Assembly (NCBI GenBank): GCA_034530875.2
Contig: JAVRCJ020000047.1
Location: forward strand, 1 to 52,483
Direction of reading: 5' to 3'
DNA: 52,483 bases
DNA from: Nostoc sp. DedSLP01
GTDB taxonomy: Bacteria > Cyanobacteriota > Cyanobacteriia > Cyanobacteriales > Nostocaceae
This document shows, piece by piece, positions 23,573 to 31,311 of the stretch. Under the pieces are notes generated by a model. That model worked only from the letters and a program-made list of their open reading frames with translations, was not told the origin of the DNA and searched no databases. Position 1 is the first letter of the stretch, and the number at the start of each line of letters is the position of its first letter. Position numbers and translations under genes: made by a program.

Positions 23573-24643
23573 TTAGTATTCAGCAGGCTTAGATCGAACT
23601 ACTACGCCGCCGTGAACCATGCCTTGAATTTCTGGGCCAAAAAAGCTGTAGGGAAATTGCGGTTCGGGACGGCTGATAGCTTCCAAACGATTGGCGAGTT
23701 CGCTGGGAATCTCAAAAGCAAGGGCTTGCAAATTATCCTCAAGTTGCGATTGCTTGGTGGCTCCGATAATTACCGAGGCAATTCCAGGGCGATTGGCTGT
23801 CCAATTGACGGCAACTTGAGCCATACTGCGCCCCAATTCTTGGGCGACTGTTTCTAGTTCTGCGACAATTTTCCAGTTGCGATCGCTAAACTTTTGAAAT
23901 GCTGGATTTTGAGTACCACTCACCTTCTCCAGCCGTCCAACTCCTGTGAAACCGCCCTCGCTAGGCTTGTACTTACCACTGAGAAGACCACTCGCCAACG
24001 GACTCCACACCATCGTACCCATTCCCAGTTCCAGACCAAGGGGAATAAATTCTCGCTCAATGTTACGCTCAATCAACGAGTACTCTAGCTGGAGAGTGCA
24101 AAGCGGTTCGTAATTGCGCCACTCGGCAATAGTTTGCGCCCGTGCTGCATACCAACTTGGTGTATTACTCAATCCTATGTGCCTTACTTTACCAGAACTT
24201 ACTAAATCGTTGAGCGTCCGCATTACTTCATCTGCTGGGGTAATCGTATCCCAGGTATGAAGAATGTAGAGGTCGATGTAGTCAGTTCCTAACCGTTGCA
24301 GCGAACCTTCCACAGCCCGCAGAATATTTTTGCGCCCGTTACCGCCCGTATTTGGGTTTCCGGGTTCGGCATTGTAGCTAAACTTAGTTGCCACTACAAT
24401 GCGATCGCGCAGATTACCCTCGGCAATAAATTTACCCAACCAAGTTTCGCTAGTACCATTTGTATATAAATCTGCGGTGTCAATAAAGTTACCTCCCGCA
24501 TCAACGTAGGTATTAAACATTTGGCGTGCCGTAGCTTCATCGCTTCCCCAACCCCATTCAGTCCCGAAGGTCATTGCACCAAATGCTAGACGGCTGACAC
24601 GCAGCCCAGAACGTCCGAGAGTGTAGTAAGTTTTGAGAGACAT
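23573..24643 (-). CDS. Aldo/keto reductase
   Basis: LGRSGLRVSRLAFGAMTFG, IDTADLY, IDLYILH, GKVRHIGLSN. Confidence 0.94.
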   Translation of the reverse strand: MSLKTYYTLGRSGLRVSRLAFGAMTFGTEWGWGSDEATARQMFNTYVDAGGNFIDTADLYTNGTSETWLGKFIAEGNLRDRIVVATKFSYNAEPGNPNTGGNGRKNILRAVEGSLQRLGTDYIDLYILHTWDTITPADEVMRTLNDLVSSGKVRHIGLSNTPSWYAARAQTIAEWRNYEPLCTLQLEYSLIERNIEREFIPLGLELGMGTMVWSPLASGLLSGKYKPSEGGFTGVGRLEKVSGTQNPAFQKFSDRNWKIVAELETVAQELGRSMAQVAVNWTANRPGIASVIIGATKQSQLEDNLQALAFEIPSELANRLEAISRPEPQFPYSFFGPEIQGMVHGGVVVRSKPAEY

Positions 24644-24753
24644 ATTGCTAACTCCGAAATGAGTATAAAATTCGAGAGTGTTTCAATAAATACTGAGAGT
24701 AGATTTTTGAGCGCTATTCACTTGTGCAAATCTTTGCTCAACTGCAAGCAATG

Positions 24754-24883
24754 ATTGACATCACACAACAGTTGTAGTTAAAAGTTTAGGAGCGATCGCC
24801 CCTTCATAACCAAAGTACAGTAAAAAATAGAGCATAGGCGTAGCCCGTCGCAGATATCGCTTACTTATTTCAAGTTCCAAACA
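24754..24883. repeat. Left copy of ~130-bp HIP1-containing direct repeat (includes an SDR5-like insert at 24835-24855)
   Basis: Aligns with 27916-28047: 36/46 identical in the left arm, 28/28 in the right arm, middle segment inverted. Confidence 0.85.
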
Positions 24884-25004
24884 GCAAACTTCAAGTTCAA
24901 AGGCTCAAAAGCTGAATTTACAGGCAATACTTCGGTCTTGCTGCAATTGAAATCGTAGGTTAACAGCAAAAGTCAGTTAAAACTAACTCAAATTAACTAA
25001 AATT

Positions 25005-25062
25005 TAGTCCGTTTCAACGGACTTAGGCTATTAGCCTCGGAATTGATTCCGAGGCTAATAGC
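25005..25062. repeat. Tandem hairpins (REP/MITE-like)
   Basis: AGTCCGTT-TC-AACGGACT hairpin, then perfect 17-bp arms GCTATTAGCCTCGGAAT-TG-ATTCCGAGGCTAATAGC (25027-25062), downstream of the small minus-strand gene. Confidence 0.75.
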
Positions 25063-25099
25063 AACAAAACAAAGAATTTGCCTTTCTTTACCAGTACCT

Positions 25100-25348
25100 C
25101 TACTTGGTTTTTTCGCTTGTTGGACGCACTAAAGTTTTAACTAAACCCGTAATTGCAACAATCACAGAGGCAACTCCGGCGATGGATACTGAAGTCAAAA
25201 TTGCCACTGCAAGGATGATTTCACCCGGACTATCCCCATTCCGCATCCAAGTAGATGGATTTTCTACTAATGTTGGCGAGGCGGGGATTAATTGCGAAGT
25301 TTGGGTGGTTTGATTAGCGTTGATTGGATTTGTTAAAGCAGTTTTCAT
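25100..25348 (-). CDS. Small membrane protein (82 aa), divergent from the STAND gene
   Basis: ATG 25348 with AGAGG SD; polar N-terminus, then a long hydrophobic stretch SPGEIILAVAILTSVSIAGVASVIVAITGLV and a basic tail. Confidence 0.65.
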   Translation of the reverse strand: MKTALTNPINANQTTQTSQLIPASPTLVENPSTWMRNGDSPGEIILAVAILTSVSIAGVASVIVAITGLVKTLVRPTSEKTK

Positions 25349-25426
25349 GGCTGAACCTCTTCTAAATCTTTCTATGCAAATCGTATTTCTGACCAAAGAA
25401 GAGGAGATTACTAAGAAATTGAGACA

Positions 25427-25456
25427 AAGTGGAAAGAAAGTAGAAATTAAGTAGAA
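25427..25456. promoter_or_regulatory. Three direct repeats AAGT(G/A)GAA at 11-bp period
   Basis: Copies at 25427-25434, 25438-25445 and 25449-25456 in the divergent intergenic region. Confidence 0.5.
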
Positions 25457-25482
25457 TCGAAAATAAATCTCACAAGCTGTCT

Positions 25483-27867
25483 ATGGAATGGGCTGATTTT
25501 CTAGCCAAAGAAGCTGCTATTAATAGCTTATCGCCAGAGCAAACGGCAGCTTTTGTAGAGCGTTTAAAAACCGAAAACTCAGGGAAGAGTGAGGCAAAAC
25601 TTGCCAGCGAATTAAACATTGGTGCGGCTGCTTTCAAAAAGCGGATGGCTGAAGTGTATGAAAAATTCGCCAAGAGTTATCCTGAATTAGCCACTTCTAA
25701 CAGTCGCGGTAAGCTGGAAAAGTTACGGGCTTGCCTGACAGCGAAATATAATGGCGGGCAAGATGCCCAACCAACAATTAAAGAGATTCATCACAATATT
25801 CCGCCTGCTGTTCCATTTGAAAAATTTGTGGGACGTGAGACGGAACTAGAAGAACTGCACCAGAAATTACAAACATCTCGGCAAGTTGCAATTGTAGCTG
25901 TGGCGGGTATGGGTGGAGTTGGCAAAACAGAACTAGCTACCCAATACGCCAAACAGCATTTGCAGAATTATCAAGGTGGGGTTTGCTGGTTATCAGCACA
26001 GGGAATTGATATCGAAATTCAAATTCTCAGATTTGCCGAATTAAAATTTAAACTCATTGCACCGGATGATTGGGAATTAGCAGATAGGCTGAGATACTGC
26101 TGGCAGAATTGGCAACAAGGTGAAGTGCTGCTTGTGTTTGATGATGTCACCGACTACAAAAAACAGGTTCAGCCTTATCTACCACCAGAATCATCCCGGT
26201 TTAAAGTGTTGCTAACAACCCGCTTGGGGTTTGATAGAACTTTGCCGCAATTACCTTTAGGTGTTCTCAAACCATTGGCGGCGATGAAGTTATTAAAATC
26301 ACTGGTTGGTAGAGAACGGCTGAAAACCGAACCTTGGATAGCGAGAAAAATTTGTAAATTCTTGGGATATTTGCCTTTGGCGTTAGAGTTGGTGGGGCGA
26401 TATCTGGATACAATGCCAGATTTGTCTTTAGAAAAACTGCTGAAGCGGCTAGAGAAAAAGCGACTGGAACACGAAGCAATAGCTAAGGCTAACCCATTGA
26501 TGCGTTATGAATACGGCGTTGCTGAAGCTATTGCATTGAGTTGGGAACAGTTAGATGAAAATGCACAAGGTGTCGGCTGTTGGCTGAGTTTGTATGCTTT
26601 AGCTGATATTCCTTTTTCTGTTGAGGCGATAGAAGATGACGATGCACAAGAATTCTGGGAGAAAGCTATAGCTGAGTTGCGAAAACTGCATTTAATACAA
26701 TGGCAAAGTAAAGGAATTTATCGTTTACATCCACTGATTCGGCAATTTCTCCAAATGAAGTTGGATGAGTCAAGTAAGGCGGATGAGGTGAAAACTGCTT
26801 TTGTAGCGCAGATGGTAAAGGTGGCAAAGAAAATTCCTCAACAGCCTAACCGTGAAGATATTTTCAACCTCAATCCCTTTATCCCACACCTTGCAGAAGT
26901 TGCAACCCACCTATCCCAATATCTCAGGGACGAGGATTTAATTTGGTCTTTAACAGGCTTAGGTTGGTTTTATCAAGGTCAAGGACTTTATCAGCAAGCA
27001 GAACCTTGGTTACAGCAGTGTGAAAAAGTTACTAAAAATCGTCTTGGTTTAAAACATCCCTATGTCGCCACTAGCCTGAACAATCTCGCAGCACTTTACG
27101 ATTCCCAAGGACGCTACAGCGAAGCCGAATCCCTGTATCTGCAAGCTTTGGAACTGAGTAAACGCTTACTGGGAGACAACCATCCCGATGTCGCCATTAG
27201 CCTGAACAATCTCGCAGCACTCTACTCTTTTACAGGACGCTACAGCAAAGCCGAACCCCTGTTTCAGCAAGCTTTGGAACTGAGTAAACGCTTACTGGGA
27301 GACAACCATCCCTATGTTGCCACTAGCCTGAACAATCTCGCAGCACTCTACTCTTCTACAGAACGTTACAGCGAAGCCGAACCCCTGTTTCAGCAAGCTT
27401 TGGAACTGAGAAAACGCTTACTGGGAGACAACCATCCCGATGTTGCCACTAGCCTGGACTATCTCGCAACACTCTACTCTTCTACAGGACGCTACAGCCA
27501 AGCCGAACCCCTGTTTCAGCAAGCTTTGGAACTGAGAAAACGCTTACTGGGAGACAACCATTCCGATGTTGCCACTAGCCTGAACAATCTCGCAGCATTC
27601 TACTCTTCTACAGGACGCTACAGCGAAGCCGAACCCCTTTTTCAGCAAGCTTTGGAACTGAGTAAACGCTTACTGGGAGACAACCATCCTGATGTTGCCA
27701 CTAGCCTGAACAATCTCGCAGAAGTCTACCGTTCTACAGGACGCTACAGCGAAGCTGAAACCCTGTTTCAGCAAGCTTTGGCAATTTGTAAGCAGACTTT
27801 AGGTGTAGATCATCCAAATACAATTACGGTTTGGAGAAATTATGCAAGCTTTTTCTTTTTATTTTAA
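25483..27867 (+). CDS. STAND NTPase: N-terminal HTH-like domain, NB-ARC, TPR repeats
   Basis: FVGRETEL, Walker A GMGGVGKT, Walker B LLVFDDV, LLTTR, GYLPLAL, YRLHPL; C-terminal 42-aa TPRs; N-terminal SEAKLASELNIGAAAFKKRMAEVY helix-turn-helix-like segment. Confidence 0.9.
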   Translation: MEWADFLAKEAAINSLSPEQTAAFVERLKTENSGKSEAKLASELNIGAAAFKKRMAEVYEKFAKSYPELATSNSRGKLEKLRACLTAKYNGGQDAQPTIKEIHHNIPPAVPFEKFVGRETELEELHQKLQTSRQVAIVAVAGMGGVGKTELATQYAKQHLQNYQGGVCWLSAQGIDIEIQILRFAELKFKLIAPDDWELADRLRYCWQNWQQGEVLLVFDDVTDYKKQVQPYLPPESSRFKVLLTTRLGFDRTLPQLPLGVLKPLAAMKLLKSLVGRERLKTEPWIARKICKFLGYLPLALELVGRYLDTMPDLSLEKLLKRLEKKRLEHEAIAKANPLMRYEYGVAEAIALSWEQLDENAQGVGCWLSLYALADIPFSVEAIEDDDAQEFWEKAIAELRKLHLIQWQSKGIYRLHPLIRQFLQMKLDESSKADEVKTAFVAQMVKVAKKIPQQPNREDIFNLNPFIPHLAEVATHLSQYLRDEDLIWSLTGLGWFYQGQGLYQQAEPWLQQCEKVTKNRLGLKHPYVATSLNNLAALYDSQGRYSEAESLYLQALELSKRLLGDNHPDVAISLNNLAALYSFTGRYSKAEPLFQQALELSKRLLGDNHPYVATSLNNLAALYSSTERYSEAEPLFQQALELRKRLLGDNHPDVATSLDYLATLYSSTGRYSQAEPLFQQALELRKRLLGDNHSDVATSLNNLAAFYSSTGRYSEAEPLFQQALELSKRLLGDNHPDVATSLNNLAEVYRSTGRYSEAETLFQQALAICKQTLGVDHPNTITVWRNYASFFFLF
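27055..27810 (+). repeat. Six near-identical 126-bp coding tandem repeats (TPR units)
   Basis: Units begin CAT(C/T)CC at 27055 + n x 126; protein unit HPDVATSLNNLAALY...KRLLGDN. Confidence 0.92.
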
Positions 27868-27915
27868 GAGAAGCATATCGCTAACGATCGCCCCCTTTCT
27901 CCCAAACCACACCAA

Positions 27916-28047
27916 ATTGACGCTAGACAACAGTTGTAGCTTCAAGCTTAAAAGCGATCGCCTGTAACTGCAAATGGCTACTGCTCTATTTTTCACTGTA
28001 CTTTAGAGATGAAGGAGCGATCGCTTACTTATTTCAAGTTCCAAACA
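27916..28047. repeat. Right copy of ~130-bp HIP1-containing direct repeat
   Basis: HIP1 at 27954-27961 and 28017-28024; see 24754-24883. Confidence 0.85.
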
Positions 28048-28075: not shown

Positions 28076-28330
28076 ATGCGAACAGTACCAATTCAATTAC
28101 CAGAAACAGTATTTTCAGCACTTCGGAAAAATCCAGAAGAATTTATCCAAGAAATGCGAATTGCCGCAGCAGTTAAATGGTATGAATTAGGCGACATCTC
28201 ACAAGCTAAAGCAGCAGAAATAGCTGGACTAACTCGTGCTGAATTTATTAATGCTTTATCTCGCTACCAAGTAGATTTTATGCAATATACTGCCCAAGAG
28301 TTAGCCGAGGAACTGGCAAATGTCGATTAA
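28076..28330 (+). CDS. UPF0175-family putative antitoxin
   Basis: 84 aa; EMRIAAAVKWYELGDISQAKAAEIAGLTRAEFINAL HTH pattern. Confidence 0.85.
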   Translation: MRTVPIQLPETVFSALRKNPEEFIQEMRIAAAVKWYELGDISQAKAAEIAGLTRAEFINALSRYQVDFMQYTAQELAEELANVD

Positions 28331-28475
28331 TTGTGTAATTGTTAACTCTTCACTTTTGATTGTTCTATTGAAAAGTTCACAAGCAAAATTTGAGGTTTCA
28401 ACCTCAATCTTCAAGCAGAAAGGGGGCAATATTTCCCCCTTATTCTTAGTTATTAAGATGCTACCTGAAAACTAG
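28320..28475 (+). pseudogene. Truncated PIN-domain (DUF3368-like) toxin remnant
   Basis: Overlapping ATG at 28320 reads MSINCVIVNSSLLIVLLKSSQA, similar to the VIxNSSPLIxL start of DUF3368 toxins. Similarity ends after about 22 codons; stop at 28475. Confidence 0.6.
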
Positions 28476-31050: not shown

Positions 31051-31311
31051 ATGGGAATAGATGATTTGTTTAGAAATATAGCTGGTGGCAGGCAGAAACG
31101 ACGCGATGAAGAGTGGGATAATCGCGATCGCTCCCAATACAGATATCGCGACAATGACGACGAAGACGAAGACGAAGACCGCGAATACAGATATCGCGAT
31201 AATGACGACGAAGACGAAGACGAAGACCGCGAATACAGATATCGCCGCAATGACGACGAAGGCCGCAGGTACAGATCTCGCCGTGACGACGAAGACGAAG
31301 ACCGCGATTAA
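31051..31311 (+). CDS. Small low-complexity Asp/Glu/Arg-rich repeat protein
   Basis: Strong SD AGGAGGT before ATG; 48-bp tandem unit encoding YRYRDNDDEDEDEDRE. Confidence 0.7.
   Translation: MGIDDLFRNIAGGRQKRRDEEWDNRDRSQYRYRDNDDEDEDEDREYRYRDNDDEDEDEDREYRYRRNDDEGRRYRSRRDDEDEDRD

Follow-up and report, generated by a model that had tools for sequence, protein, structure and literature searches.

The window analysed here, a stretch of 52,483 nucleotides on contig C47 (JAVRCJ020000047.1) of the 8.57-Mb genome of Nostoc sp. DedSLP01, carries a long STAND gene of the NB-ARC/TPR type that is bracketed by two related stretches of non-coding DNA (all coordinates are window positions). These two brackets are paralogous copies of an intergenic spacer that is punctuated by the palindromic octamer HIP1 and belongs to a tandem array of NB-ARC/TPR (STAND) genes. 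In the right copy one 32-nt module of the spacer, which we call M, is inverted, and this is a real and precisely HIP1-bounded microinversion in a HIP1-dense, deletion-prone spacer. From the comparison of alleles we consider it probable that M was turned round between two HIP1 sites by one old replication template switch and has since been inherited and fixed; it is most likely a fixed fossil and not a regulatory switch. The two spacers are composed as follows:

24717..24791, plus strand: long form of module A, left spacer, with the odd palindrome ACAACAGTTGT; the post-STAND spacers of relatives match 24717-24800 at 85-89%.
24792..24799: perfect HIP1, probably fused from two sites when modules Y and Z were deleted; core of M at an offset of 13 nt.
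24800..24831, plus strand: module M in the forward, majority orientation (76/80 copies).
24832..24860, plus strand: degenerate HIP1 (GCA/ATCGC), split at the slash by a 21-nt SDR5-type insert at 24835-24855 (45 copies in the genome).
24861..24920, plus strand: module B (24861-24883, with no difference from its right-hand counterpart), followed by a remnant of a tract of 21-nt tandem repeats.
27916..27961, plus strand: right spacer, module A (27916-27953) and a perfect HIP1 (27954-27961); 36/46 to the left copy.
27962..27976, plus strand: module Y, forward and outside the inversion; with the next octamer, 18/23 to the forward Y plus HIP1 of relatives.
27977..27984: decayed HIP1 GCTACTGC, 3 mismatches, the probable left breakpoint.
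27985..28016, minus strand: the 32 nt of module M in inverted orientation; they match the left M (24800-24831), read as its reverse complement, at 27/32.
28017..28047, plus strand: perfect HIP1 (28017-28024, the right breakpoint) and module B (28025-28047).

A preliminary description of this DNA had reported three matches between the brackets, and all three were reproduced exactly, without gaps: 24754-24799 with 27916-27961 (36/46), 24856-24883 with 28020-28047 (28/28), and 24800-24834 with the reverse complement of 27982-28016 (30/35). The runner-up gapless matches in the entire genome reach 30/46, 21/28 and 24/35, respectively; the three matches are far above chance, and each is confined to this single locus. 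It follows from this single-locus distribution that A, M and B are not dispersed repeats of DedSLP01, nor do they recur round many of its accessory genes as had been envisaged. The left copy is also longer than first described, being homologous to the spacers of relatives from 24717 onward, i.e. further left than 24754. The palindrome noted earlier is indeed present in both copies (24765-24775 and 27927-27937), but it is an odd one, with 5-bp arms round a single base. It is exact in 56/73 alleles, with 17 copies of the pattern in the genome, and a role as operator is conceivable, perhaps one recognised by the N-terminal domain of the STAND protein.

Both searches and fetched regions of relatives place the spacer family next to NB-ARC/TPR genes across this Nostoc genus. 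Its full order is: STAND gene end, HIP1, A, HIP1, Y, HIP1, Z, HIP1, M, HIP1 (often split by SDR5), B and the 21-nt tandem repeats. The pattern of M was found in 85 of 389 genomes of the family, 69 of them in the genus of DedSLP01, some of these matches being unrelated chance hits; in the GTDB collection it is found in five records, all titled Nostoc, and scans of metagenomes gave no match. The surrounding array typically comprises an FHA gene, a small open reading frame, the long STAND gene, optional cargo (UPF0175/PIN, a methyltransferase and others), a short STAND gene and, finally, a pentapeptide gene with gcvT; in the clade of DedSLP01 it ends in an amylase gene instead. Seen against this arrangement, the left copy in the window is a post-STAND spacer from which Y and Z have been lost, and the STAND gene that would precede it, at the end of which module A usually lies, is gone; the homology of this copy starts at a position (24717) that is not a HIP1. 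The core of M begins 13 nt past the HIP1 at 24792..24799, just as it does past the fourth HIP1 of full-length alleles. The right copy has lost Z.

The 21-nt tract, which varies in copy number, flanks STAND units (24884-24920 in the window; L064:14416-14919 and L072:10255-10617 in relatives), and its opposite strand reads as open heptad repeats that have no Pfam match. Two other candidates for the nature of the spacer were rejected. A small conserved gene is ruled out, since frames from the ATG of module A end at anything from 7 to 110 codons, and this ATG is absent from both window copies. Nor is the spacer a structured RNA: no Rfam match came near its gathering score, and folding gave z = -1.27 and 0.36.

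The extent of the flipped piece is ambiguous by eye, because Y resembles the reverse complement of B. It comprises only the non-coding M. A flip of all 55 nt that separate the two perfect HIP1 sites was considered and rejected, the first 23 of them (27962-27984) being a forward Y followed by a decayed HIP1. Compared with the Y plus HIP1 of relatives, these 23 nt match at 17/23 or better in 12/71 alleles in the forward direction and in 0/71 in the reverse, the reversed comparison reaching at most 14/23. Since they match the forward form, the left breakpoint falls at the decayed octamer 27977-27984. The earlier proposal of a flip between HIP1 sites is upheld as regards breakage at HIP1, but its left limit is GCTACTGC and not the perfect site at 27954-27961. 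A clean version of the inverted allele exists in the relative G077, which has A, HIP1, inverted M, HIP1 and B with nothing else.

The likeness of Y (27962-27976) to the reverse complement of B (28025-28047) reaches 12/13 in genome G014, with shuffle p values of 0.0005-0.18 over 6 alleles. It hints that the interior of the spacer may once have had longer inverted ends. When the G014 and G076 alleles were folded as DNA, neither formed a hairpin of Y and B enclosing M.

The flanks give an orientation for 80 copies of M in 65 genomes: 76 of these copies stand forward and 4 are inverted. The latter are the right copy of DedSLP01 and the copies of G073, G077 and G103. All four inverted copies have TCCTT after the HIP1, a motif that follows it in none of the 76 forward ones. 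Seven forward alleles have both HIP1 sites within 1 mismatch. Both orientations of the unit HIP1-M-HIP1 therefore do occur, but only between species (these 7 forward alleles, and the 4 genomes with the inverted form). The left site of the inverted M has 3 mismatches in DedSLP01 and 2 in G073, is split by SDR5 in G103 and is perfect only in G077. In G103 the SDR5-split site has been reversed along with M and lies on its other side. A scan of GTDB gave 3 inverted (L270, L271, L273) and 2 forward stretches, which we kept out of the 76/4 count because of possible overlap with genomes already counted, and in the run X10 the inverted form occurs without the 23 nt at 27960, while the small-share runs X4, X5, X13 and X17 do not usefully cover the inverted segment. 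In a rpoB tree (FastTree, built on the 30 best of the hits in 127 genomes of the genus), the four inverted carriers all fall inside one 12-genome clade (support 0.86). Within it, G104 has M forward, and the other fetched members either have no intact M at this place or were recovered only in part. The idea of ongoing flipping fits poorly with these data: the inverted form is limited to 4/80 copies, to one clade and to a private TCCTT marker.

The module order and the precise loss of modules between pairs of HIP1 sites can likewise be read directly from the alleles. For this we parsed the modules of 73 A-anchored alleles, global alignment having splintered the long deletions. A is joined to M in 15/73 alleles (13 at the exact offset of a HIP1 fusion, 2 off by one), A to Z in 5/73, Y to M in 2/73, and A to B across a repeat-split HIP1 in 2/73; all of these counts include shared descent. 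The module shuffling suggested in the preliminary description is thus borne out in the form of whole modules deleted precisely between HIP1 sites. If deletions were placed arbitrarily, about 0.25% of them would have this outcome of a single remaining HIP1. Among the direct repeats of a full-length allele, HIP1 pairs (10, 9 and 8 nt) are the longest, followed by a non-HIP1 7-mer that overlaps only the end of one HIP1; the deletion across this 7-mer is present in 17/73 alleles and is consistent with an enzyme-independent rearrangement. The deletions correspond to the four longest direct repeats of the spacer, and M is bounded by 10-bp inverted arms. Since HIP1 pairs are the longest repeats present and the 7-mer is used as well, generic microhomology explains the deletion pattern.

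Being palindromic, HIP1 could play both roles wherever two of its copies lie close together. As direct repeats, the copies would allow slippage to delete the DNA between them; as inverted repeats with 10-bp arms (GCGATCGCTC..GAGCGATCGC), they would allow a template switch to flip the sequence that separates them. No dedicated enzyme would be required, an enzyme-free step that we infer. Decay of the left site after the flip would then lock the orientation of M in DedSLP01. The STAND units, for their part, would expand and collapse by ordinary recombination between longer homology (B and the 21-nt tract), leaving a spacer on each side. The distribution of inverted M is most simply read as one inversion event with later loss or replacement, and two events are also compatible with it.

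Several points weigh against a single template switch. The four carriers form no single group on the rpoB tree, G103 pairing with G104 (in which M is forward), so that one event would have to be supplemented by subsequent loss, replacement or transfer. Among the carriers, G103 alone has SDR5 in the left site, which fits two events too. Moreover, template switching is not separable, on the alleles as they stand, from a recombinase acting on HIP1 in trans or from homologous recombination. Finally, a template switch does not account for the density of HIP1 itself: DedSLP01 has 7,591 sites with a median gap of 790 bp, and the spacer has 5-6 sites in about 250 bp.

It could instead be that HIP1 itself is the active joint, i.e. 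that a trans-acting and possibly methylation-dependent activity cuts HIP1 or exchanges strands there, so that deletions, inversions, SDR5 insertions and swaps of genes would be concentrated in a spacer so rich in HIP1. We regard this as unlikely, but it has some attractive features. The whole-module changes with ends at HIP1 fall into five classes (the inversion, and deletions that remove Y, Z, YZ or YZM), and the rarity with which arbitrary deletions would leave one HIP1 has been mentioned. The position of SDR5 insertion within HIP1 is fixed, and the stop codons of STAND and PIN genes overlap or abut a HIP1 that is followed by the same spacer modules (27884-27891 in the window; after PIN in L210, L069 and L064). 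There are also published hints, in the accessible portions of the sources, of site-specific recombination at HIP1 (PMC4390886) and of HIP1-enhanced integration (bioRxiv 2024.09.10.611283). On the other hand, HIP1 pairs are merely the longest repeats that the spacer offers, and the 7-mer is used too. Joints of 121 spacer blocks to foreign DNA, by a loose automatic classification, lie at HIP1 in 9/24 classes on the left (7/22 on merging three that are one PIN-end joint) and in 6/31 on the right, against a null of 22-23% (p = 0.07, 0.21 merged, and 0.75 on the right).

The rest of the genome gives no more encouragement to an active HIP1 joint. When 50 tiles of the relatives G031 and G071 were aligned with DedSLP01 (689,874 columns), 0/97 and 0/101 HIP1 pairs, respectively, were inverted, coding and non-coding pairs being pooled and many perhaps coding. 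Among clean indels in the same tiles, 0/84 had HIP1 at both ends, and 10 had an SDR5-like match or HIP1 at one end. Three genome-wide screens found no HIP1-bounded inversion elsewhere, but their control recovered the window's inversion in 1/4 forward loci and only 2 DedSLP01 pairs lay inside those alignments, so that sensitivity is limited and the frequency of inversion is only loosely bounded. One screen gave 30 reverse hits, on reading mostly simple tandem or other repeats, and another gave 3 inversion candidates, none at HIP1. A more ambitious version, in which HIP1 is a true joint and the spacer an enzyme-driven shuffler of modules, whose deletions, inversions and SDR5 insertions at HIP1 retune the expression of the neighbouring STAND genes and the candidate anti-phage PDC-S70 genes, seems to us quite unlikely. 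If true, inversion directed by HIP1 would here be recorded in nature for the first time, and the spacer would offer a ready substrate with which to look for the enzyme.

The insert that interrupts the last HIP1 of the left copy had been called SDR5-like, and rightly so. SDR5 of the Nostocaceae, as defined in the available parts of PMC4390886, PMC5861425 and PMC13756078, is a 21-nt element lying between the third and fourth bases of HIP1. The insert at 24835-24855 has this length and this position, and it is dispersed: 45 sequences in the genome match it with no more than 4 mismatches, nearly all of them flanked by GCG and ATCGC (a G at position -1 in 40/45, each base of the following ATCGC in 39-44/45). 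The host HIP1 in the window, unlike the usual one, is degenerate, and it is by length and position that the insert is likened to SDR5.

The genes around the spacers are the following:

25100..25396, minus strand: small open reading frame, 98 aa, head-to-head with the long STAND gene in relatives.
25483..27867, plus strand: long STAND gene, 794 aa, with NB-ARC (118-331) and TPR repeats.
27884..27891: one-mismatch HIP1 over the ancestral STAND stop codon, at the same place in relatives.
28076..28330, plus strand: UPF0175 antitoxin-like gene (PF03683; PDLC05075).
28320..28390, plus strand: PIN/DUF3368 partner, truncated start of about 24 codons.

The STAND unit does come and go among relatives, as had been proposed. 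Of 34 loci that span the array, 24 have one long STAND gene, one has two and 9 have none, at least 2 of these 9 retaining fragments; such empty-site alleles had been predicted, but their joints differ from one another (the repeat tract, the 3' tail of the STAND gene, module Z or module A). In G106 the joint lies within the tract of B and 21-nt repeats, which in G024 stands on both sides of the unit; the joints of G025, G103 and G104 are elsewhere. The second half of the proposal, that HIP1 marks the cassette boundary, is not supported, as foreign joints are not enriched at HIP1 and the outer left edge at 24717 is not one. The changes of the STAND unit are better explained by ordinary recombination and by deletion within a tandem array than by a defined cassette boundary. 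We accordingly think it very unlikely that the spacers bound a mobile cassette (the small open reading frame and the long STAND gene) that excises and integrates as a unit. It is true that this unit can be absent or doubled, that it is found in at least 3 genomic settings and that the 28 nt containing B are identical on its two sides. But the empty alleles share no joint; the left side in most relatives has only B-like sequence and repeats, without A or M; contig C47 has no integrase; and in a search of 126 genomes of the genus the left flank of DedSLP01, an aldo-keto reductase gene, was never found linked directly to a single spacer.

A switchable promoter had also been put forward, and it is extremely improbable that M is a phase-variable promoter element for the downstream UPF0175/PIN pair or the STAND gene: M is well conserved, lies 59 nt upstream of the UPF0175 start and precedes UPF0175 in both orientations in different genomes, but in the left copy TTGACA is 55 nt from TACAGT, TTGAC is present in 3/73 alleles (two of the three being those of the window), neither spacer has a sigma-70-like consensus site, the left breakpoint has decayed in DedSLP01, and the PIN partner there is truncated. 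A switchable sigma-70 promoter was rejected on account of this spacing, the rarity of TTGAC and the lack of a consensus site. A DNA switch of any kind at M is unlikely. No match to tyrosine or serine recombinases, IS110 or Y1 transposases (PF00589, PF00239, PF01548, PF01797) was found on contig C47, all such matches in DedSLP01 lying on other contigs. The contigs of the runs X1-X3 (one study, depth 177-471) span both spacers unbroken and with no variant letters, but contigs drop rare variants, and these runs may be the source material of the assembly, which makes them a weak test of orientation.

The neighbouring genes show other signs of change. UPF0175 and its PIN partner together match the PADLOC candidate system PDC-S70. 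In DedSLP01 the rest of the PIN gene and the short STAND gene, present in relatives, have been deleted; about 4 kb of G031 (the remainder of PIN and the short STAND gene) is missing at 28320-28419, and UPF0175 is left an orphan of what is, when intact, the PDC-S70 pair. An 11-nt insertion near 27851 (27851-27867) shifts the last codons of the long STAND gene and is absent from the contigs of the runs X4, X10 and X13. The small open reading frame at 25100..25396 has no match in Pfam, NCBIfam or PADLOC. Downstream of it, 25006-25062 holds two neighbouring hairpins (one of 7 bp, the other a perfect 17-bp inverted repeat), and sequence resembling this stretch is dispersed through many genomes of the genus. 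The aldo-keto reductase gene beside the left spacer (23573-24643) has no close match in the genus, the best being 73% (G130, G115), and on this evidence it looks recently acquired. Further to the right, 31051-31311 is a short open reading frame of repeated acidic and Arg/Tyr-rich units.

It is useful to compare this spacer with better-known rearranging systems. Invertible promoters and shufflons (fimS with FimB-FimE, hix with Hin, the R64 shufflon with Rci) have, as M does, a segment between inverted repeats that occurs in two orientations upstream of genes. Unlike them, M has no linked invertase, its arms measure 8-10 bp, one of them is decayed, no mixed orientations were seen in the contigs, and there is no promoter geometry. 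The cassette arrays of integrons share with this array the variable accessory genes (here STAND, a toxin-antitoxin-like pair and a methyltransferase) and the related, co-oriented spacers; this array, by contrast, has no integrase, no stable attC-like fold (the z-scores above) and heterogeneous joints.

Closer precedents are found in HIP1 itself, whose function is a long-open question, the evidence for rearrangement in the accessible literature being a few laboratory deletions and plasmid fusions. HIP1-flanked excision was described for the smtB deletion of Synechococcus PCC 6301 (Gupta 1993; Robinson 1997), and in the available sections of the sources it is read as illegitimate recombination that occurs in E. 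coli too (PMC13756078, PMC4390886). Both there and in this spacer, the DNA between two octamers is lost precisely and one octamer is left; here, however, such losses recur in natural alleles and are accompanied by an inversion. Our literature search, which most subscription papers lay outside, turned up no paper that describes this spacer or an inversion bounded by HIP1 in nature. The alleles of the spacer form a natural series with breakpoints at HIP1 (Y, Z, YZ or YZM deleted, one inversion, SDR5 gained), which could be used to test HIP1-specific against generic microhomology mechanisms. The nearest parallel for the inversion is template switching, by which, according to the accessible parts of PMC8604942 (and PMC5941160 for the mechanism), the spacer between short inverted repeats is inverted. 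In such cases, as with M, a short spacer is reversed between short arms and becomes fixed in a lineage without any need for an enzyme gene; what sets M apart is that each of its arms consists of HIP1, a palindrome present throughout the genome, and 2 further bp, so that the sites double as direct repeats for deletion.

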